A stretch of 64,000 nt of DNA from Turneriella sp. (lineage in GTDB: Bacteria > Spirochaetota > Leptospiria > Turneriellales > Turneriellaceae), in contig CBDIID010000003.1 in the NCBI GenBank assembly GCA_965279515.1, positions 2,752,001 through 2,816,000 on the forward strand, written 5' to 3'. The notes below the pieces were generated by a model. It saw nothing but the letters and a program-made list of their open reading frames with translations. It did not search any database and was not told where the DNA came from. Made by a program: the position numbers and the translations under genes. Positions 24,796 through 61,266 of the stretch are shown here, piece after piece; position 1 is the first letter of the stretch, and the number at the start of each line of letters is the position of its first letter.

Positions 24796-25893
24796 ATGAT
24801 TTTCAGAAACGTGCTTTTGGTTGTTTTCGTTGCCTCTGCCGGAACAGTATCGGCGCAAACGGCGGCGCTTGCCGATGTGCCGGCAGGTTGCAACGCGGAA
24901 ATCCGCCTCAATCGCCCAAAGGTCTATATCGCTAACTTTTACGTCACCTATGGCAAGGCTGACATGGGCAAGAACATCGGCGATTATATTGCACAGCGCT
25001 TCGAAACCGACGGCCGTTTCGAGCTGGTACCGCGCGCTGCGATCAGCGAAACGATGAGCCGTTTTCTGACCGGAAAAAAGATCAGTGCAGACCAATACCT
25101 GCAACGCACACTCGCGCTTGCCGCAGGCGAAAACGCCGACTGCGTCATCTTCGGAAGAATTTCAAAAAAGAAAAACAAAGTCTCTTTTTCAGTGCGGATG
25201 TCCTCCGTCAGCAGCGGTGCCAGCGCGCGCAAAGTCGACACCGATGTCGAGCGCGACGCGGCGCTCGGCTTCTTAGAGGGCATCGGCGATTCGTTTGTCA
25301 GTTATTTTGTCACTGCCGCGCCGGTGCCCGTTGCGGACAACAATACCGAGGGCAGACACCGCGGTTTTCACCTGAGTCTTACGGCCGGCAGCGGCTACCT
25401 CACCGCATCCAAGCCGATCGGCAGTGATAGTTTTTCCGTGGATTCTTTTGCAGGCCATGCAGGTCTGAAAATCGGCGCGGCGATCCGGCCGGATGTCATT
25501 CTGTTCGGCGCCTTCGATGGTTTTATAGGTTTCTCTCCCGTGGGTAAGTTACAGCAGAGCGGCATTCAGGACGCCGTTTCGTTCTCTGAACTCAGCCATA
25601 ACATTCTCACAGCGGGTGCGGGGTTGAAATTATACAGCGAAGAAAATTATTTTTTTTCCGCCTCGCTTGGCTTTGCTACCGGAACTCTGGGGTACAGCAA
25701 CAACGGCGTCAGCACTTCCGGAAACTCAGGCTATGGTGTGGCAGTGCAGCTCAGCCTCGGCCGCGAATGGTGGATTGCCCAACGCCTGGGCATCGGCATC
25801 GCATTGACGGGCCACTATAGCAACCTGCCGGGAAACTCGGTTTCTGTGAATCAGTATTATGCAGGCCTCGGAATCTCGGCCAGTTATAACTGA
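24796..25893 (+). CDS. CsgG/TolB-like N-domain plus beta-barrel (module B, copy 1)
   Basis: Signal peptide; KVYIANF..RFELVPR..ADCVIFGRI; barrel ending YAGLGISASYN. Confidence 0.72.
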   Translation: MIFRNVLLVVFVASAGTVSAQTAALADVPAGCNAEIRLNRPKVYIANFYVTYGKADMGKNIGDYIAQRFETDGRFELVPRAAISETMSRFLTGKKISADQYLQRTLALAAGENADCVIFGRISKKKNKVSFSVRMSSVSSGASARKVDTDVERDAALGFLEGIGDSFVSYFVTAAPVPVADNNTEGRHRGFHLSLTAGSGYLTASKPIGSDSFSVDSFAGHAGLKIGAAIRPDVILFGAFDGFIGFSPVGKLQQSGIQDAVSFSELSHNILTAGAGLKLYSEENYFFSASLGFATGTLGYSNNGVSTSGNSGYGVAVQLSLGREWWIAQRLGIGIALTGHYSNLPGNSVSVNQYYAGLGISASYN

Positions 25894-26011: not shown

Positions 26012-27076
26012 ATGTTAAGACGCTTCCTGATCGCGGCCGCTTGTGTCACAATACCCTGTAAGGTTTTTAGCCAAAATCCCGGCCAAATGATTTCTGCGAC
26101 GGGCGTTTCCGGATTAATCAGCCCGCCGACAGGCTGCAGTGCCGAAATCCGCGGCAACCGGCCAAAGGTTTACATCGCCAACTTCTTCGTAACCTACGGG
26201 AAAAAAGACATGGGCAAGGCGATCGGTGACTATATCGCCGAACGTTTCGAAACGGATGGCCGCTTTGAAATCATTCCCCGGGCCCAGATCAATGAAACGA
26301 TGATGCCTTTTTTCAAGAACAAAAAGGCCACGGCAGACCAATACCTGCAGAAAACGCTCGAACTCGCCGCCAGCCAGGATGCCGACTGTGTAATCTTTGG
26401 CCGCATAGCCAAAAAGAAAAACAAAATCTCTTTTCTTGTACGGATGGCAGCCGTCTCGACGGGAAACAGCGTGCGCAAAGTCGATACCGACGTCGAAAAA
26501 GCCGAAGCCGTCCAATTTCTCGAAGGTATCGGCGATTCTTTTGTCAGTTATTTTGTCTCAGCACCCGCTCTGCCCGTGCCGATTGCAGATAAGCCGGGAA
26601 AAATCCGCGGTTTTTATCTTGCTGCGAATGGTGTCGGCGTTCTTCCCTTTGGTTTCGTGCGCAATGGGTTCTCCTGGGGCTCAGGCGGGTCATTTGAATT
26701 CGGGCATAAAGGGCTGCTGGGCAAAGATTTGTTTTTCGGTGTGAACGGAGAATACGTCTATTATTTCAAGAGCAACGATAATTTTACAAGTCTCTATAGC
26801 ATGACCGCGCTGGGTCTCGCCGGTTATGAATTTCTGACTTTGGAGAAACTGAAATTCCAGCTTGTGCTGTATGGCGGTTACCAGATGGGTCGACTCACCG
26901 GGGCCGTGGAAACCTTTGATTATGGTTACGGTATCTTTATGGCCGGCAGCCGAGCCGTTTATGATCTGAGCGAACGTTGGGGACTCATGGGTGAAGCACG
27001 CTACTCACTGGCAATTGCGGGTTCAACGAAGATTTCCTCAGTCGGTTTTTCAGCTGGTGGCCAATGGAGGTTTTGA
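26012..27076 (+). CDS. CsgG/TolB-like N-domain plus beta-barrel (module B, copy 2)
   Basis: N-domain closely similar to copy 1; different barrel ending FSAGGQWRF. Confidence 0.75.
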   Translation: MLRRFLIAAACVTIPCKVFSQNPGQMISATGVSGLISPPTGCSAEIRGNRPKVYIANFFVTYGKKDMGKAIGDYIAERFETDGRFEIIPRAQINETMMPFFKNKKATADQYLQKTLELAASQDADCVIFGRIAKKKNKISFLVRMAAVSTGNSVRKVDTDVEKAEAVQFLEGIGDSFVSYFVSAPALPVPIADKPGKIRGFYLAANGVGVLPFGFVRNGFSWGSGGSFEFGHKGLLGKDLFFGVNGEYVYYFKSNDNFTSLYSMTALGLAGYEFLTLEKLKFQLVLYGGYQMGRLTGAVETFDYGYGIFMAGSRAVYDLSERWGLMGEARYSLAIAGSTKISSVGFSAGGQWRF

Positions 27077-29224: not shown

Positions 29225-30130
29225 ATGACAAAAGCAGAATTTCTCGCGAGCGAAACCGGCAAACAGTATACAGCGCAGATGCGCCTGACGGGATTAAGGC
29301 CTGTCACCATCAATAACTATGCCCGGCGCGTCAGCGCGGCAGCAAGGTTTTTGCGGAAGGAGCCCTCCAGCCTCAGTTCAAAAGACGCAGAAGAGTTCAT
29401 CCAGAAGGCGGCGCTCGAGGGTAACTCGAACATTAACAGCATTATTACATGCGTGGCGCTGAAATTTTATGTGACGCGCATACTGAAGAAACCCTGGCAC
29501 AGCTTTGCGTTACCGCGCGTCCATAAACACCGTAAGCGGCGCGCACGGCCGTTGACGCGCGACGAAATTCTCGCCATCATCGATCGCACGCAGGGTCGTC
29601 GGTACCGGCTGCTCTTCGCCCTGATCTATGGCAGCGGCCTGCGCGTGGGTGAAGCGTGCCGGCTGCGTCTCAGAGATCTGGATTTTCACAATCTGAAAAT
29701 TTATATCCGGGATGGAAAGGGCGGCCGTCACCGTGAAACGGTACTTTCTTCCGCGCTGGCAAAGGAACTCATGCTTTATATTTCCGAAAGGCGCCCGATC
29801 CAATGGCTTTTCCCTTCGAACCGCCAGACTTACGCGGCGGAAACCCTCTTTCCTGTGGTAATCAGAACAAAGCCTATCTCTGTGCGTTCGGCCCAGCGTG
29901 AGTTTGAAATTGCCTCCAACCAACTGAATCTTTCAGGGCTGGTCACCATCCACTCGCTGAGGCACTCTTTCGCCACCCATCTCGTGGAATATAATATGCC
30001 GCTGTTTTCTGTGCAGCGTTTGCTGGGCCACCAACACCTCAACACAACGCTGGGTTATTTGTCGTCGATGGGTCGGCCCGTGGTTGAAGATTTTAGCCCG
30101 CTAGACCGCTTGCGCATCGCGCACCTGTAA
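29225..30130 (+). CDS. Tyrosine recombinase, integron-integrase-like, lacking the I2 helix
   Basis: YGSGLR, GKG, HSLRHSFATHL, LLGH..TTLGY; C-terminal SPLD. Confidence 0.85.
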   Translation: MTKAEFLASETGKQYTAQMRLTGLRPVTINNYARRVSAAARFLRKEPSSLSSKDAEEFIQKAALEGNSNINSIITCVALKFYVTRILKKPWHSFALPRVHKHRKRRARPLTRDEILAIIDRTQGRRYRLLFALIYGSGLRVGEACRLRLRDLDFHNLKIYIRDGKGGRHRETVLSSALAKELMLYISERRPIQWLFPSNRQTYAAETLFPVVIRTKPISVRSAQREFEIASNQLNLSGLVTIHSLRHSFATHLVEYNMPLFSVQRLLGHQHLNTTLGYLSSMGRPVVEDFSPLDRLRIAHL

Positions 30131-51716: not shown

Positions 51717-52436
51717 ATGTTATCACCTTTCTGGGGCGAATTTCTGGGCACGATGGTGCTCATCATCTTAGGCAGCGGCGTTGTCGCGGGCGTGCTGCTT
51801 GAAAAATCGAAGGCGCAAAACGCCGGGTGGATTGTCATCACGGCGGGCTGGGCCTTTGCCGTCACGCTGGGGATTTTCACCGCGAAGACTTTCGGCAGTC
51901 CCGATGCGCACCTAAACCCGGCCGTAACGCTGGCCTTCGCGATCAAATCGGGCTCGTATGAAAACGTGCCCGTCTTCTTCGCCGCCCAGTTCGCGGGCGC
52001 TTTTGCGGGAGCTGTCATCACCTGGCTGCACTATTTACCGCACTGGGGCGAAACAAAAAACCCCGCACTAAAACTCGCGGTCTTCTCAACCGACCCGGCC
52101 ATTCGCCATCCGGTGCACAACATGGTGAGCGAGATCATCGGCACATTGGTTCTCATCATCGGCGTCTACGTCATCTTCTCACGCGGCTCCGGCGGCATCA
52201 GCGCAGGCATGGGCCCGTTTCTCGTCGGCATACTCGTCTGGGCAATCGGCCTCTCGATGGGCGGCACGACCGGCTACGCGATCAACCCCGCCCGCGACCT
52301 CGGCCCACGCCTCGCGCATGCACTGCTGCCGATTGCTGGCAAGGGCTCATCGGACTGGCGCTATGCTTGGGTGCCAGTGGTCGCACCGCTGATTGGAGGG
52401 GGGATTGCGGGGGTGGTGTTGCGGTTGGTTTCGTAG
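51717..52436 (+). CDS. glpF: MIP aquaglyceroporin
   Basis: HLNPAVT and GYAINPARD. Confidence 0.9.
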   Translation: MLSPFWGEFLGTMVLIILGSGVVAGVLLEKSKAQNAGWIVITAGWAFAVTLGIFTAKTFGSPDAHLNPAVTLAFAIKSGSYENVPVFFAAQFAGAFAGAVITWLHYLPHWGETKNPALKLAVFSTDPAIRHPVHNMVSEIIGTLVLIIGVYVIFSRGSGGISAGMGPFLVGILVWAIGLSMGGTTGYAINPARDLGPRLAHALLPIAGKGSSDWRYAWVPVVAPLIGGGIAGVVLRLVS

Positions 52437-52470
52437 AATAGGTGGAGTGTGACATGGGCAAAGAGTAATT

Positions 52471-53259
52471 ATGTACGCAAAATATTTTATCGCATTATTG
52501 ATTATCTTCTTAGGAAATTGCCGAGACCCCAAAGGCCAGATTGTTGAAGATTACTTAGATTCTACTCTGACGAGAGAAAGTACGATCAGAATGCAAGAGG
52601 TTTTTGTCGAAAAATTGCCACCGCAAATGCCGCGCTCAGTCAAGTTAAAACTCGGTGCCTTTGCACGCCGGATATGGGACTTTGAAACATACGCTGATAC
52701 ATTAAAGCAAACCTCGATACCGCCGGAAGTCATAGCCGGCATGAAGTCGACTATAGATTTCAGTAAGACAGAAGCTGGCAGGTCGTACAAAAAATCCCTT
52801 AAGAATTATTTTGACAATGAGCGGCAGCTTTTAGGCCAGAAGAGAATCTCCGATTTCCCCGCCGCTCGAATCGACTTTTTTACGCAGCGCTTTTTTGCCA
52901 ATAACGAGCCTGAAAACGGGGAACGGGTAAACCGCGACTTCAACTATCGTATGATGAAAATCTTTTGGATATTGAGCCATCCAAATAAACCCATTGACGA
53001 GGCAGAAATCAAGGCAAAGTCTCAGATTATCATAAACGCTGAGCGTAACAAAATGCAGAAATCAATTATTCAGGGCAAAGTCCCAGATTCTATGCTTCTT
53101 CGCAGCTTGGTACAGACTATGCTCTTAACCGAGCAAGAATTTGAGGCGTACAAATCCTACCTTAATGCAACAGAGGCCATTTCTCTGAAAAAGTTCATTT
53201 TTGACTTTGACCATACTCAGTCGCAAATCCGCATGGACAAATACATACAATCACTATAA
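52471..53259 (+). CDS. Cassette 1: lipoprotein, unknown function
   Basis: FLGNC lipobox; flanked by a 14/15 inverted repeat. Confidence 0.75.
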   Translation: MYAKYFIALLIIFLGNCRDPKGQIVEDYLDSTLTRESTIRMQEVFVEKLPPQMPRSVKLKLGAFARRIWDFETYADTLKQTSIPPEVIAGMKSTIDFSKTEAGRSYKKSLKNYFDNERQLLGQKRISDFPAARIDFFTQRFFANNEPENGERVNRDFNYRMMKIFWILSHPNKPIDEAEIKAKSQIIINAERNKMQKSIIQGKVPDSMLLRSLVQTMLLTEQEFEAYKSYLNATEAISLKKFIFDFDHTQSQIRMDKYIQSL

Positions 53260-53271
53260 GTTGCCCACGTC

Positions 53272-53455
53272 ACACAACAAATTTTACGCGCTGCGCCGCT
53301 GCGGTGCAGTAGCTCCCCGCGTGCTCCCTAAGGGGAGATTCGCTTCGCGCGTCGCCGCGAGCCGCTACGACCACATTTTTTGACGCAAATCGGCTTTACA
53401 AAGTGAATAATGACACAAGCATCAAAAAACGTCATCGTAAAATCCAACGTTAGCT
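53272..53455 (+). repeat. attC-like site 1 (184 bp)
   Basis: ACACAAC, ATTTTACG (53281-88) pairing CGTAAAAT (53436-43), GTTAGCT. Confidence 0.8.
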
Positions 53456-53468
53456 GCCATGGTGCATT

Positions 53469-54389
53469 ATGTCAGACCACTTAAATAAACTAATTAACTC
53501 AGTTCACTTTCAATCGATCCTTAAAGAGCAGAGTGTTTTTAACGTAGTTAAACAGCATTTACCAGACACTCAAATGGGGACTTTTTATGTAGACCCTGAT
53601 ACGAGTAAGTACAGAGAAATTGATGTATTGGCTTTAAAGGAGAGCACAATAAATCAAAAATCTGAAGAAATTAGAGTAAGAACTATTATACCAATCGAGT
53701 GCAAGACGTTGAAAAATTTTAGTGTCTTTTTGTATAATGAGCAGCCTAAAGAAAAATCCAGGCCAAATACGGTTTGGCCTCTTGAAATTCTTCAAACAAC
53801 AATTTTTCAGAAGATTCACCGTGAATCACTGAGTCTAAAAGTCCAAAAACGGTTTGAGCTTGAGCATTCAAATACACGCCCGAAACTAACAGATCAGATA
53901 GATTTGGCCGCCAGTTTCGCTGAACCTGTCTTTCCTACTTATGCGAGTTTTAGGGAGATGAACCCAGCAAATGTGCGACGCAAGGATGATGATGGGAGCG
54001 TCGTTTGGGAAGCTAGCCAAAGTCTTCGGGCCTGCCAGATGTACTTCGTAAATGAGGTTATCAAGACCGCCGTTGAGGATTCGATTGAACAAATGGCAGG
54101 CTTTATTGATGAAGTTGACAAAGCTAGAGATGCAACTTATACACGCATACCGCTAATAAGACTTGATGCCATTAAAGCATTGCATAATAGATTTTACTCA
54201 ATTCATCCCATATTGGTGGTAGACGCTCAGCTTTTTACAATTGATGAGAATGAAAACCCTAAGGAGATTTCCGCAGGCAATTTGGCATTTTACGGCGTTG
54301 GCGGCTTCGCAAATTTTCAAATGACAGTCATGCGGTATTCGACCTTTCAAGAGTCAATCGCTGCTTTGATAAAAGGCATCTTGATCTGA
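53469..54389 (+). CDS. Cassette 2: PD-(D/E)xK nuclease-like protein
   Basis: YVDPDTSKYREIDV ... IECK; AT-rich relative to the window. Confidence 0.65.
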   Translation: MSDHLNKLINSVHFQSILKEQSVFNVVKQHLPDTQMGTFYVDPDTSKYREIDVLALKESTINQKSEEIRVRTIIPIECKTLKNFSVFLYNEQPKEKSRPNTVWPLEILQTTIFQKIHRESLSLKVQKRFELEHSNTRPKLTDQIDLAASFAEPVFPTYASFREMNPANVRRKDDDGSVVWEASQSLRACQMYFVNEVIKTAVEDSIEQMAGFIDEVDKARDATYTRIPLIRLDAIKALHNRFYSIHPILVVDAQLFTIDENENPKEISAGNLAFYGVGGFANFQMTVMRYSTFQESIAALIKGILI

Positions 54390-54401
54390 ATGCCCCACGG
54401 C

Positions 54402-54698
54402 AGCTAACAAATTTTACGCGCTGCGCGCTGCGGTGCCGTAGTTCCTCTGAAAACAGAGACCCGAGGACAGGTCGCGTGTGCTCCCTCAGGGGAGATTCGC
54501 TTCGCTCATCGCGGGTCTTCGCAGCAAAGATCGCGGACGACGCGCACACCGGGAGGTGTGTTTTCGCGCGGCGCTGCGTGACCTTTTAGGTCTTCGTCTT
54601 CGGTGCCGCTAGACCACATCTTTTGACGCGAATCGGCTTTACAAATTGATTAAATGGCACAGGCGTCAAAAAACGTCGGCGTTAGATCCAAGTTGTGT
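54402..54698 (+). repeat. attC-like site 2 (297 bp)
   Basis: AGCTAAC-AAATTTTACGCGCTGCG start shared with site 1; ends GATCCAAGTTGTGT. Confidence 0.78.
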
Positions 54699-54708
54699 TA
54701 CCTTTACT

Positions 54709-55497
54709 ATGAAACCATTCTCAAAGCGCTATTTTCTACTTATAATACTTGGCCTAAATTCGATTACGTGTAATAATCATAAAATTGCAACGAAAGATAT
54801 ACTTATTGTCGAAATCACTGATGCCGATCTCGGCCTGAAAATAACTGCTGAGCCGGAGTATCGGAGAATGATCCCCTTGTTCCGCACATCTCTGACGAAG
54901 TTTCTAACGGATTTAGGACCGTTAGCTCGATATGTTCTAATTCATATGACCCTTAGTTCGCACGAAAAAAATGACATCGATCATAACTTGCGCGACGCCA
55001 TACAGAAGCTGCCCCGTAAGACTCTAATTTATGGCAACTTACTTAAACGAAAGATGACGCATAAGTTTTTTTCCTCCGCAGTCGCCGAAATGGGTCACGT
55101 TGAATTTGCCGAAGCAGACGAAATGACATGGTTATTCTATCCGAGTATTTGTGACCGTGATAATGTAAACTCTGACAATGAGCCCGGCGATTGCCCTGAA
55201 AACAAAATCCGCAGAGATATTGCTTTGATCGCCGCTGAGGGGTATGCAGGTAAAAAAATTACGACAAAACTTGCTGATTCTATTGCCTACGAAAAATGGA
55301 GATTAAAAGGGTTATCGCGAATTACCTATACGAAAGCAACGCAATCGCCCGAGCTCTTGAAGGACAAGCTCATCATAATAATCAATCAACCGACACCTGA
55401 CAGCGATATGCACGATCTAATGGGGGATTCAAAAATATCCGGTTCAGAAATTCTTGGGAATCGAGTTTTGTTTTACAATGAATTAGCTGCCCCGTAG
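54709..55497 (+). CDS. Cassette 3: lipoprotein with CHASE2-like features
   Basis: SITC lipobox; DILIVEITDADL; LKDKLIII..DMH..ISGSEILG. Confidence 0.6.
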   Translation: MKPFSKRYFLLIILGLNSITCNNHKIATKDILIVEITDADLGLKITAEPEYRRMIPLFRTSLTKFLTDLGPLARYVLIHMTLSSHEKNDIDHNLRDAIQKLPRKTLIYGNLLKRKMTHKFFSSAVAEMGHVEFAEADEMTWLFYPSICDRDNVNSDNEPGDCPENKIRRDIALIAAEGYAGKKITTKLADSIAYEKWRLKGLSRITYTKATQSPELLKDKLIIIINQPTPDSDMHDLMGDSKISGSEILGNRVLFYNELAAP

Positions 55498-55505
55498 CAA
55501 ACGGC

Positions 55506-55818
55506 GCACATCGAGGTTTGCGGGGCTACGCTCGCTGGGGCGCCATAGCTTGAAACCGCAAGGGCGATGGCGCGGGCTTCCTAAAGGGAGATTCGCTTCG
55601 CTCATCGCGGGGTCTCCGCGGCAAAGATCGCGGATGACGCGCACACCGGGAGGTGTGTTTTTGCGCGGCGCTCGTGACCTTTTAGGTCACTGAAGACAGA
55701 GGCGAAGACGCCACCGTCTTCGGTGCTACGAGGGCACATTTTGTGTCGCGAATCGGCTTTACAGATTGATTAATTGGGGCAGGCGTCAACAAACGTCAGC
55801 GGAAAATCCACGTTGAGC
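55506..55818 (+). repeat. attC-like site 3 (313 bp; left end ATC instead of AAC)
   Basis: Shares GGGAGATTCGCTTCGC, GCACACCGGGAGGTGTG and AATCGGCTTTACA with site 2; ends AAATCCACGTTGAGC. Confidence 0.72.
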
Positions 55819-55836
55819 TCTATCGCCAGGAGACGA

Positions 55837-56361
55837 ATGAAAAAGAAACATTACTCCTATTCATTATTGATTCTTGTCATTTTCTTTGGAGTATCCTGCC
55901 AGCCGCGACTAAAGCTGTTTATCATTCAGAATATGACCGAAAAACCTTTAGCTATTGAACTATTTATTCATCCCTTTGAGGACATGCCAGCCAAACCGCC
56001 TGAAGATTTCCCCTTCGAAGTAACTTTCTTTAAGTCTGGCTATTTTGGAGAGCCGAGCATTGAGGAGAATGGTACGCGAATACCCTTAAAATCTTCTGCG
56101 ATTAAGTTAGATACGAAAAGGCATTCGATTATTTTTTCCCTAAAGCCCAGGGCGGGATTAGAGATTTTTAAAATGACGTTTCACCAGTTTAAGGCTTTGG
56201 ATGATAAAACTATTTCAAAGTTTCCTTTCAAATTACTTGCAATACAAACTCCAAGCAAGCAACTAGAAATTGCCATAACATCGAAAGGTTTAACTGAAAA
56301 CTTCCAGAGACCGTTTTTTTCAATCTGGGATCATGAGCGAAATGAACTAATTGTCCAATAG
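55837..56361 (+). CDS. Cassette 4: lipoprotein, unknown function
   Basis: AGGAG RBS, ATG 55837, FGVSC lipobox. Confidence 0.72.
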   Translation: MKKKHYSYSLLILVIFFGVSCQPRLKLFIIQNMTEKPLAIELFIHPFEDMPAKPPEDFPFEVTFFKSGYFGEPSIEENGTRIPLKSSAIKLDTKRHSIIFSLKPRAGLEIFKMTFHQFKALDDKTISKFPFKLLAIQTPSKQLEIAITSKGLTENFQRPFFSIWDHERNELIVQ

Positions 56362-56369
56362 GCAACGGC

Positions 56370-56640
56370 TCACAGCAAGAATTACCTGCGGTGCGGTAGC
56401 TGCCCTACAGACATAGACCCGAAGACGGGTCGCGCTTTGCGCGTCGCGGCCCTGGCAGCAGCAAGCGGTATACTTCTTTTGTGCACAACCCTCGGCGGAT
56501 ATCCGAAAGCGAGTTACAGAGAGGCGCCAGGAGTATATTAACTGCCGCAAGATCCCGCTACAGGCTAAAAAGTCGAACAAGGCGTCATTCAACGGTAAAT
56601 AAAATTCACGCCGCCGGCCCTCCAACAGCAAAAATATTTC
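56370..56640 (+). repeat. Degenerate attC-like site 4
   Basis: CTGCGGTGCGGTAGCT and GACCCGAAGACGGGTCGCG resemble blocks in sites 1 and 2; ends unclear. Confidence 0.45.
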
Positions 56641-56653
56641 GTCTAAGTAGAGT

Positions 56654-57045
56654 ATGAGCATCTATCGAAGATACATGCTGGATGAATCCTGGGGCGATGA
56701 GCCCGAAATCAAGGCGCAGAAAAGTCTCGTCGCCGCACTCCGAAAAACACTGCTCACCCCTGCCGACGTTAAGAGCGCCCTCAAGAAGGGCATAAATCCC
56801 ATTGATTCATCCATAGAGAAATGGTCTCGCATTCAAGCGGTTTTGGCCGAAGCGAAGCGAATTGAAACATTGGCTGCTTTAGAAACCTTCATCGGCGCCA
56901 AGACCTGCGCGCTCTGTATCAGATTGTACAAAATGCCCGGCATGCACCCCAGCTCTATGCCGAAGATGAGGAGATATTTGAGCAAATAAAACAGCTGGCT
57001 CTTCAGATGGTGAATTTACTGAAATCAATTCCTCAGAATAGCTGA
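56654..57045 (+). pseudogene. Probable frameshifted Cys-motif protein
   Basis: ORF to 56989 with CALC; DCTKCP and the helix AEDEEIFEQIKQLALQMVNLLKSIPQNS* follow in the other two frames. Confidence 0.4.
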
Positions 57046-57123: not shown

Positions 57124-58146
57124 CTACGGTCGTCGCACGGGACGGAAACCGATGCTGGAGAACGCCTGATACGGGGAAATCGCGTTGATGCGGCTCGAGG
57201 TGCGTACAATGCCGGAACCGGGATCGTTCCAGCTACCGCTACGCCTGATACGAAGCGGGCCGGTTGCTGGGCCTATGCTATCCGCATCCGTGTAAGGTGA
57301 GGCGGTTGTATACGAGCCATTCCAGTCCCAAACCCATTCATAAACGTTGCCACTCATATGATAGAGGCCCAAAGCATTGGGTGCTTTGGTGTCTACCGGG
57401 TGTGTTGTTGTGGTATTGCCTGTAGTGCCATTAACGATGTTGCCGAACCAAGCTACGAAATCTGTTGCGGCAAAGTCAGAAACGTCGGCTGTTGCCCCGC
57501 TCGCATAGTTGCCCGGAGTGAATGCGGTGCCGTTAATATAACGTGCCGCATATTCCCACTCCACTTCGGTGGGCAACCGATAACCATTCGCCGACCAGTT
57601 GACGAAAGGAAAATCTATGCTGCCACTCCCCGGTGTGCCCAGAATCGAGAAGGTAGCCGACGAGGTTTTCTGCACGACCGAAAAACCAGCGTCACTGTAA
57701 TACACAGGGGTCAGTCCATCTTTTTGCGATGCCGCGTTGCACCAGAGGATGCTATCCCGCCAACTAACAGCCGTCACCGGGTGCTGGTCGGTGCGCGCTC
57801 CGTTGTCACCCGGAATGCCTGGGTTGGCGAAAGTGTACCCGTTATTCGTGGCCCAAGCCTTCACCGTTACCCAGTCGCTGTATTGCACCTCATATTTCGC
57901 GATGGCGAACGCGGTGATCGAGGGAACCGTGTGCGTCAGTTCAATACCAGTATCGTCCATAACGAAACCGGTAGTATTCGCTGGCACGCGTACCATCAGC
58001 AGGCTACAAGAGGCCATACTTATGGTGCAACTGCTTGAAATGTCGGTCGAGTCCCAGAATTTACCCCAACTCGTGCAGGAGTGGCTCATCCCTGTTGCTA
58101 TGCAAAGAAAAAACACGCCGATATAAGATATTTTTCCGGATAGCAT
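57124..58146 (-). CDS. SUMF1/FGE-sulfatase-domain lipoprotein
   Basis: AKYEV, HPVTAVSW, YRLPTE.EWEYAAR, PNALGLY.MSGNV.EW, GFRPVR; SHSC lipobox. Confidence 0.88.
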   Translation of the reverse strand: MLSGKISYIGVFFLCIATGMSHSCTSWGKFWDSTDISSSCTISMASCSLLMVRVPANTTGFVMDDTGIELTHTVPSITAFAIAKYEVQYSDWVTVKAWATNNGYTFANPGIPGDNGARTDQHPVTAVSWRDSILWCNAASQKDGLTPVYYSDAGFSVVQKTSSATFSILGTPGSGSIDFPFVNWSANGYRLPTEVEWEYAARYINGTAFTPGNYASGATADVSDFAATDFVAWFGNIVNGTTGNTTTTHPVDTKAPNALGLYHMSGNVYEWVWDWNGSYTTASPYTDADSIGPATGPLRIRRSGSWNDPGSGIVRTSSRINAISPYQAFSSIGFRPVRRP

Positions 58147-58322
58147 TTCCGTAAACATATCAGAATTTTGCCCTTTGTCGACCGGAATGATCATTCAAGA
58201 CCAATTTTTTTGCTTTATTCAGGGCGAGTCTCTGACTTCAGGGGCGCGGCATTAAAAATTTGTTTCATTTACGCCATGTACTTTTTATTAACTTTATTCG
58301 GGAAAATTGTTAAGAATCAAAA

Positions 58323-60652: not shown

Positions 60653-60792
60653 GATACCACTACTCAACCCATAAAACATGGAGTGTCTCCGGACAGGTCG
60701 GTTTTTTTATGGCATGGCATGTGTGCGGCGAGCGTATTTTAAAGGCGGCGGAAAAATCGGGGTTCCGGTCTTTTTGCACTTTAAGGAATCAA

Positions 60793-61266
60793 ATGTTACA
60801 CCTGTTCTGCGGAAAAATCGCATCCGGTAAATCGACGATGGCAAAAGAAATTGCCTCGAAGGAAGGCGCGATAATTATCAGCCAGGATGAATGGATGGCC
60901 ACCTTATTTCCCGGAGAAATTAAATCCATTGAAGATTTTGCCCATGCCCTGGGAAAGTTGCGAAAGGTCATGGGCCCGCACATCGTCATGTTATTGAAAC
61001 GGGGACAAACGGTAGTGCTCGACTTTCATGCAAATACGCTAAATGCGCGCCATTGGATGAAATCCATCTTTGAAGAAGCCGGCGCTGACCATACCCTGCA
61101 TTACATGAAAACGCCGGACGATATCTGCAGAACAAGACTCAATCAAAGGAATGCCAAAGGTGATCATGAATATCAGGTTAGCCAGGATGATTTTGATGCC
61201 TTTGCCCTGCATTTTTTGGCGCCATCAGCGGAAGAAGGTTTCAAGATAAAGATGTATAGGGTTTGA
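60793..61266 (+). CDS. AAA_33-type P-loop kinase
   Basis: CGKIASGKST, SQDEW, VVLDF, C..RL..RN. Confidence 0.85.
   Translation: MLHLFCGKIASGKSTMAKEIASKEGAIIISQDEWMATLFPGEIKSIEDFAHALGKLRKVMGPHIVMLLKRGQTVVLDFHANTLNARHWMKSIFEEAGADHTLHYMKTPDDICRTRLNQRNAKGDHEYQVSQDDFDAFALHFLAPSAEEGFKIKMYRV

Follow-up and report, generated by a model that had tools for sequence, protein, structure and literature searches.

Between the aquaporin-family gene glpF and an opposite-strand sulfatase-modifying-factor gene, a stretch of the Turneriella sp. genome carries five open reading frames (ORFs) on the + strand; four of them are AT-rich, each with one copy of a long repeat behind its stop codon, and the last is short. 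The locus raises the question of whether these units are gene cassettes and, if so, which recombinase would move them. It lies in a 64,000-nucleotide stretch, here called the window (G000:C3:2752001-2816000, G000 being the 4.9-Mb source genome; window coordinates count from 1). A preliminary description had proposed a non-canonical integron-like system, and our analysis supports this as the best reading. Judged from its sequence, the system would work like an integron and stand outside the classical family as defined, because tests for the I2 insertion and for canonical attC geometry found both wanting; the departure lies mainly in the recombinase, which has no I2, and in site geometry, not in length alone. 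The window array itself is a small frozen satellite rather than the main system. Taken as a whole, we consider it quite probable that this satellite belongs to an integron-like capture system in which a compact tyrosine recombinase, L003, recombines folded bottom strands.

We searched the genome with an nhmmer profile built from the four window copies (E ≤ 1) and obtained 130 matches. When left and right site ends were scored separately and then paired genome-wide, 133 pairs emerged, and 10 left and 5 right ends remained without a partner. Two arrays, A1 (G000:C3, 90.8 to 170.7 kb; 74 pairs) and A2 (3734 to 3805 kb; 52 pairs), accounted for 126 of the 133 pairs, the rest being small satellites. 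A1 and A2 (L206 to L213) are super-integron-like, each with an intact attI-like head and no adjoining recombinase, and all sites of an array share one orientation. Measured from the R'' 7-mer to the R' 7-mer, most sites were 213 to 226 bp long. The three lengths first reported for the window repeats were confirmed, as was the degenerate copy (Table 1), and the repeat, with its 130 matches and 133 pairs in the genome, is far beyond chance. The window lengths exceed the classical attC range of 57 to 141 bp, which is confirmed in PMC5371416, but within the family 297 to 313 bp is exceptional. That long sites are a feature of satellites held only in part, as the relative G013 also has long forms (249 to 326 bp).

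The case for cassettes came from the ends of the units. For 119 of the 124 units of A1 and A2 (five units longer than 2.6 kb were omitted), we compared bases 4 to 10 behind the unit's own 5' GTT with the complement of the unit's 3' end. Own ends agreed at a mean of 6.55 of the 7 positions, against 3.82 for the GTT end of the next unit and a maximum of 4.35 in 2000 permutations. Pairing between own ends extended to position 16 to 22, and in the 114 units with well-matched ends, which also served for the stem-length and folding analyses, position 11 was mismatched without exception; in 113 it was A versus C on the top strand, which the bottom strand shows as a T-G wobble. Since own ends match and those of the next unit do not, the units appear to be cassettes that are excised as circles and reinserted at GTT. 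The seven bases behind GTT differed freely between cassettes, and because cassette-specific sequence starts directly behind this triplet, the crossover is probably at or within GTT, a placement that does not reach the single base. We also found identical cassettes set among differing neighbours, A1 and A2 having some in common (604 bp at 100% and 705 bp at 97% identity), a 194-bp ORF-less cassette present about 11 times in the genome, and one cassette type common to G000 and G013 (72 to 73% identity). Both a fixed gene order and repeats unlinked to single-ORF boundaries had been named beforehand as observations that would speak against cassettes; we found that repeats elsewhere sit at cassette boundaries with complementary own ends and that relatives carry different cassettes at one and the same glpF site. 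The repeats might instead be self-spreading palindromic elements (of the repetitive extragenic palindromic or miniature inverted-repeat transposable element kind) or homogenised leaders, with the intervening genes not being mobile units, which would suit their many small hairpins, the modular gain and loss of parts and the near-identical copies. We consider this very improbable: the pairing spans a gene to join the opposite ends of its cassette, and not the two ends of a standing repeat, each array keeps a single orientation, and whole cassettes are duplicated.

We then looked into the folding of the sites. In all 114 modelled circles the bottom strand was the more stable one. With sites in array form, 88 of 114 bottom strands folded the R stem versus 64 of 114 top strands, and the bottom strand had 394 mini-hairpins with a GNA loop, the top strand 73. 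The canonical 5+8/7+6 attC geometry with an extrahelical base was present in 1 of the 133 G000 sites and in none of 103 from four relatives, by a scan that is not very sensitive, having found canonical sites in just 2 of 12 loci of long-insert integrases. RYYYAAC occurred in 18 and GTTRRRY in 19 of the 133 sites, and the right spacer was longer than the left by 2 nucleotides (nt) in 124 sites and by 3 nt in 8. In integrons, the I2 helix touches attC's extrahelical G and prevents the second cleavage (PMC3053210, PMC4792948). Site geometry and recombinase run parallel in the present system, the canonical extrahelical base being all but absent from the sites and the I2 helix lost or primitively absent from L003.

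The genome encodes four tyrosine recombinases: XerC, XerD and two IntI-like proteins, L003 and L004, which score 161 and 149 bits with the integron-integrase model TIGR02249 (cut-off, 265 bits). No protein of the 14 genus genomes scanned reaches this cut-off. A segment of 64 residues in VchIntIA is 23 residues long in L003, which is about 41 residues short relative to structure 2a3v, so that the I2-helix insertion is absent; its inter-motif distance is 60, versus 100 to 106 in 12 long-insert relatives. The catalytic residues R-K-H-R-H-Y are invariant in 19 L003 orthologues, and the C-terminal SPL is retained. A structural model of L003 (predicted local distance difference test [pLDDT] score, 85) matched VchIntIA (2a3v) first and XerA next in Foldseek; by sequence, the best match in the PDB was the archaeal Xer 4a8e, and L003 stayed under the cut-offs for XerA, XerC and XerD. 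In a quick version of a recombinase tree (7 of 115 loci were dropped, their motifs not being located), the 12 long-insert integrases formed one clade, L003 fell outside the XerC/D clade, and the branching of the short enzymes at the base was not resolved (deep-node support, 41). Short enzymes are already known as sequences, since PMC8138268 notes that the insertion, though essential for integron function, is "not fully conserved" in an integron-like subgroup. A plasmid search with L003 returned unrelated recombinases at 32 to 39% identity.

The link between L003 and the arrays was found in relatives. An L003 orthologue is present in 26 of 41 genomes, and among the 25 loci outside G000, 8 have a cassette within 1.5 kb, to which longer stretches added 2, for a total of 10 relatives; for about 9 of the cassette-less loci, the sequence ends a few hundred bases or less from the gene. 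The array of G011 begins about 170 bp from the orthologue, with 55 detector matches in its first 60 kb and sites running over at least 200 kb. Within the order, arrays diverge from the recombinase gene; in family f8 the two share one orientation. An attI-like head lies beside the recombinase gene in G011, G002, G007, G005, G003, G013, G024, G039 and G036, and the heads are unlinked from it in G000. The orthologue in G003:C44 (L029, L165) is split into 239 and 125 aa and still heads an array.

Could another enzyme serve the sites? As first described, no integrase adjoins the window array, but an IntI-like gene, that of L004, does lie inside the window at a distance of 22 kb. This proximity, its Phage_int_SAM_4 domain and its best NCBIfam match, the integron integrase model, would recommend L004 as the cognate enzyme. 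We rejected it as the least likely of the explanations weighed here: none of its 7 orthologue loci has cassettes, most retain the purM/xanthine-dehydrogenase neighbourhood, and the protein, which is conserved in the genus, forms a distinct long-branch clade.

A canonical integron that has lost its IntI, its arrays being ordinary clusters of attC sites that have no integron integrase (CALINs) with long attC sites, would share the AAC/GTT core, the GTT crossover, the bottom-strand bias and the toxin-antitoxin cargo, and CALINs of up to 114 sites are known (PMC4889954). It is already largely refuted and deserves little credence: the genus genomes have no protein over the TIGR02249 cut-off, yet the arrays hold duplicates of 100% identity; canonical geometry and RYYYAAC are as rare as counted above; and the intact arrays of relatives are headed by the short enzyme.

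The array heads bear on a third candidate. At nine heads in G000 the cassette-end arm recurs in inverted form, exactly 6 bp ahead of TT, which resembles the layout of dif; no head could be recognised for six other left ends examined in G000. Among 13 heads of other genomes, the 6-bp spacer scored best for 10, and L085, L097 and L104, from more distant genomes, gave no fit. This arm/6-bp/arm layout, the presence of both genes in the genome and the separation of its arrays from L003 would be consistent with host XerC and XerD recombining the sites, as for pdif modules or the CTX phage site in its folded single-stranded form, with L003 a bystander; CTX integration has been named the reaction closest to cassette recombination (PMC4792948). 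Against this, L003 orthologues head the arrays of 10 relatives in differing chromosomal neighbourhoods. Moreover, XerC/D arms are fixed in sequence, whereas here each cassette is free to differ in the seven bases that follow GTT. We therefore hold the Xer explanation, the foremost of the alternatives, to be unlikely, and retain L003 as the probable recombinase.

At glpF, cassette 1 has its own 5' end starting at 52444 and reads GGA where GTT is expected; contigs of sequencing runs X1, X4 and X6 cover this position and show no other letters. Because GTT reads GGA, the glpF attachment site is probably inactive. In G001, the closest relative, glpF is followed by the same sequence with an intact GTT and then by an unrelated 607-bp cassette. 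A glpF orthologue occurs in 8 of 13 other genus genomes, and the 7 besides G001 carry other genes there, with no array and no such site. Downstream of the glpF array, a kinase-like ORF (window 60709-61266; G001 L154) is found in both G000 and G001 in opposite orientations, and the variable region may stretch beyond 57045.

The window array, whose parts are listed in Table 1, bears the marks of decay. Its cassette ORFs have a GC fraction of 0.37 to 0.42, versus 0.61 for glpF. A decay of sites from left to right, proposed at the outset, is borne out broadly by the own-end matches, but the arm scores of sites 1 to 4 are not strictly monotonic (left, 50.8, 38.7, -36.2 and 1.9; right, 19.8, 7.5, 13.1 and -20.9). 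In modelled circles, the outer stem forms for cassettes 1 and 2 and is absent for 3 and 4, and the bottom strand of site 1 folds both R and L stems. The end geometry AAC..ATTTTACG / CGTAAAAT..GTT is complete in site 1 and not intact in sites 2 to 4, and the blocks described as invariant turned out not to be family-wide, with genome counts of 5 for GGGAGATTCGCTTCGC, 2 for GACCTTTTAGGTC and 40 for AATCGGCTTTACA. Site-end scoring detected nothing behind 56616, and the trailing 111-aa ORF is possibly the remnant of a fifth cassette.

Table 1. Coordinates of the features discussed (window positions unless preceded by the contig name)
Feature	Position	Strand	Description
L004, IntI-like tyrosine recombinase	29225..30127	+	301 aa, after purM, 22 kb from the array
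glpF, aquaporin-family gene	51717..52436	+	core-genome flank; Pfam MIP, E=3e-37; left attachment-site arm made up of its last codons and stop
attI-like site	52428..52455	+	inverted 11-bp arm 52428-52438, 6-bp spacer, right arm; GTT reads GGA
Cassette 1	52445..53449	+	ORF 52471-53259, 262 aa, signal-peptide-like start; own ends 15/17
Site 1, attC-like	53272..53455	+	184 bp, both arms intact; outer stem runs about 11 bp further left
Cassette 2	53450..54692	+	ORF 53469-54389, 306 aa; own ends 16/17
Site 2	54402..54698	+	297 bp, extra hairpin modules, right inner arm damaged
Cassette 3	54693..55812	+	ORF 54709-55497, 262 aa; own ends 12/17
Site 3	55506..55818	+	313 bp, left arm decayed, AAC reads ATC
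Cassette 4	55813..56610	+	ORF 55837-56361, 174 aa, lipoprotein-like start; own ends 9/17
Site 4	56370..56616	+	about 247 bp, strongly decayed; arm scores 1.9 and -20.9
Trailing ORF	56654..56989	+	111 aa
Sulfatase-modifying-factor gene	57124..58194	opposite	right flank of the array
L003, IntI-like tyrosine recombinase	G000:C3:2926093-2927190		117 kb from the window array
Insertion-sequence copies	G000:C3 3766293, 3750273, 3741837, 3734365, 159299, 157974, 144423, 138045, 99147, 90770		401-aa transposase

Scans with Pfam, NCBIfam and PADLOC gave no family for cassettes 1, 2 and 4 or the trailing ORF. The ORF of cassette 2 had Atlas matches of 0.96 to unnamed clusters and of 0.83 to PDDEXK_GAPS4, a weak lead toward a PD-(D/E)XK nuclease candidate; a homologue search returned only the ORF itself, and its single-sequence fold model was poor (pLDDT, 32). 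That of cassette 3 showed a weak CHASE2 match under the cut-off (Pfam E=6e-5) and has a homologue of 31% identity within the recombinase-headed array of G002. A sigma-70 promoter scan found none at the window head and, for the region, 7 matches versus 6.6 in shuffled sequences, which is chance level; an Rfam scan gave no match. Contigs of four of the six sequencing runs, none of which is recorded as RNA, contained no clean cassette-skipping joint, which is evidence neither way as contigs drop rare variants; the joints listed in them were short-sided and derived from other repeat copies. Elsewhere in the window, positions 24879-25178 and 26125-26424 form a 300-nt direct repeat (72% identity, 1246 bp apart), probably paralogous coding sequence.

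As to the cargo of the arrays, 171 ORFs were called and 149 scanned (22 transposase or short ones were excluded); 81 had no Pfam family and 19 belonged to toxin-type families of toxin-antitoxin systems. ORF-less repeats, possibly promoter or spacer cassettes, occur for example at G000:C3 155727, 115567 and 3781851 (194 bp) and in G011 (L043 to L045; 280 and 375 bp). "Shell" cassettes of A1 and A2 (e.g., G000:C3 3794045, 3799778, 3802478 and 142707) have common ends and flanking GC hairpins around differing cargo, which is mostly antisense and comprises up to 12 ORFs in up to 9 kb. Another element, about 110 bp long (20 matches), lies near the shell 3' end and, in some long ones, also as a 5' direct repeat; these cassettes may bear on the origin of new cassettes. 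All 10 copies of an insertion sequence encoding a 401-aa transposase lie in A1 and A2, in one orientation; 8 of them are 18 to 19 bp inside a cassette 5' end, and the element seems to target cassette ends.

We propose that each cassette consists of one gene and one long site. The bottom strand would fold into a 16- to 22-bp outer stem with the T-G wobble at position 11, an asymmetric bulge of 2 to 3 nt, a short inner stem and branched GNA-loop hairpins. L003 would cut at or within GTT and release cassettes as circles, to be inserted at double-stranded dif-like arm/6-bp/arm sites. In G000, L003 would have lost its linkage to an array and would act in trans on the two large arrays and several secondary sites. 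The glpF site would have taken up four or five cassettes before GTT became GGA, and its sites would have decayed since, the rightmost being the oldest and the most decayed.

We then asked how far the system extends beyond the genus. In a survey of 79 loci of broader relatives, at least two same-strand cassettes obeying the end rule were found in 5, versus 0 of 79 reversed control sequences. The five loci belong to one Spirochaetota, one Firmicutes (gaps of 269 to 346 bp), two Bacteroidota and one Ignavibacteriota genome; 60 of the 79 loci were without any cassette. The Firmicutes locus (L086, Firmicutes bacterium HGW-Firmicutes-8) holds four cassettes divergent from a short recombinase and places long sites outside the spirochaetes.

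Several observations weigh against our reading. Since only 5 of these 79 loci had at least two cassettes, many short recombinases do something else, and enzyme similarity alone is no marker. In G000 and G001, L003 has no cassette within 1.5 kb, so the link between enzyme and array rests on relatives, and we observed no recombination events or circles. The site copies are homologous, which makes the folding counts a sign of consistent design rather than independent trials, and the outer stem of the circle form is built in by the construction of the modelled circles. The longest ORF was antisense in 42 of 124 cassettes, and frequent antisense ORFs do not belong to the usual integron picture. Finally, the bottom strands of A1 and A2 are the lagging-strand template, opposite to large classical arrays, a point not fully explained; classical arrays on the lagging template held at most 22 cassettes (PMC5371416). 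This orientation was derived from an origin near 2.75 to 2.85 Mb and a terminus near 0.31 Mb (GC skew, a motif like the FtsK-orienting polar sequences, and the orientation of rpsL, fusA and 16S), and was not callable for the window, which lies in the flat skew minimum, nor for G002, whose array is near the terminus; for G011 it was weak. The long sites may need a single-stranded route on the lagging template to fold. The GC-skew minimum at 2.75 to 2.85 Mb surrounds the window, and the sole dnaA-like motif is at G000:C3:4283619.

Among known systems, sedentary chromosomal integrons (the Vibrio cholerae superintegron, with VchIntIA and its VCR repeats, and the Treponema integrons) are alike in their long co-oriented arrays, AAC/GTT core, GTT crossover, bottom-strand folding bias, cargo of toxin-antitoxin and unknown-function genes, and C-terminal SPL, VchIntIA (2a3v) being the top structural match. 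The present system differs in the 23-residue segment, the lack of a canonical extrahelical base with a register offset of 2 to 3 nt, the 16- to 22-bp outer stem with its fixed position-11 mismatch, the 6-bp spacer at the heads, sites of 170 to 330 bp, and large arrays on the lagging template. CALINs, single attC sites lacking integron integrases (SALINs) and attG insertions (PMC4889954; bioRxiv 10.1101/2022.09.11.507474) likewise comprise integrase-free arrays begun at secondary chromosomal sites and served in trans, but the secondary sites here have a full inverted arm at fixed 6-bp spacing, not a short GWT core, and the genus genomes searched yielded no IntI. XerC/XerD-dif, archaeal XerA and integrative mobile elements exploiting Xer (such as the CTX phage) share the compact catalytic domain (58 to 62 versus 65 to 66 residues between motifs) and the arm/6-bp/arm layout, with 4a8e the nearest PDB sequence; L003, in contrast, is under the family cut-offs and outside the XerC/D clade, the genome has its own XerC and XerD, and arms vary between cassettes. 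We found no description of such a system in the literature searched, to which subscription papers did not belong and in which supplementary IntegronFinder tables might list some arrays. Treponema was called the sole integron-bearing spirochaete clade in 2013 (PMC3607928). The preliminary description had suspected that default attC models could overlook such sites. IntegronFinder has a default size limit of 200 bp, and default models would be expected to miss them.

Both the definition and the detection of integrons rely on the I2 insertion and on the extrahelical bases of attC, and the evolution of either before the other has been called a chicken-and-egg paradox (PMC4792948). A genome with more than 120 cassettes and neither feature makes this paradox testable by means of a single small enzyme and naturally occurring sites. 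It is conceivable, although we remain doubtful, that a living integron branch never had I2 or extrahelical bases, its Xer-sized recombinase reading the long double-stranded arms of folded single-stranded sites and of dif-like sites, with arrays of 100 to 200 kb in spirochaetes and other phyla. If true, such a branch would be the intermediate that the paradox demands. The window array is a minor, decayed part of the system, of value as a dated record of secondary-site insertion. For the organism, our results suggest a reservoir of mobile genes, about 3% of the chromosome, that surveys based on IntI leave uncounted.

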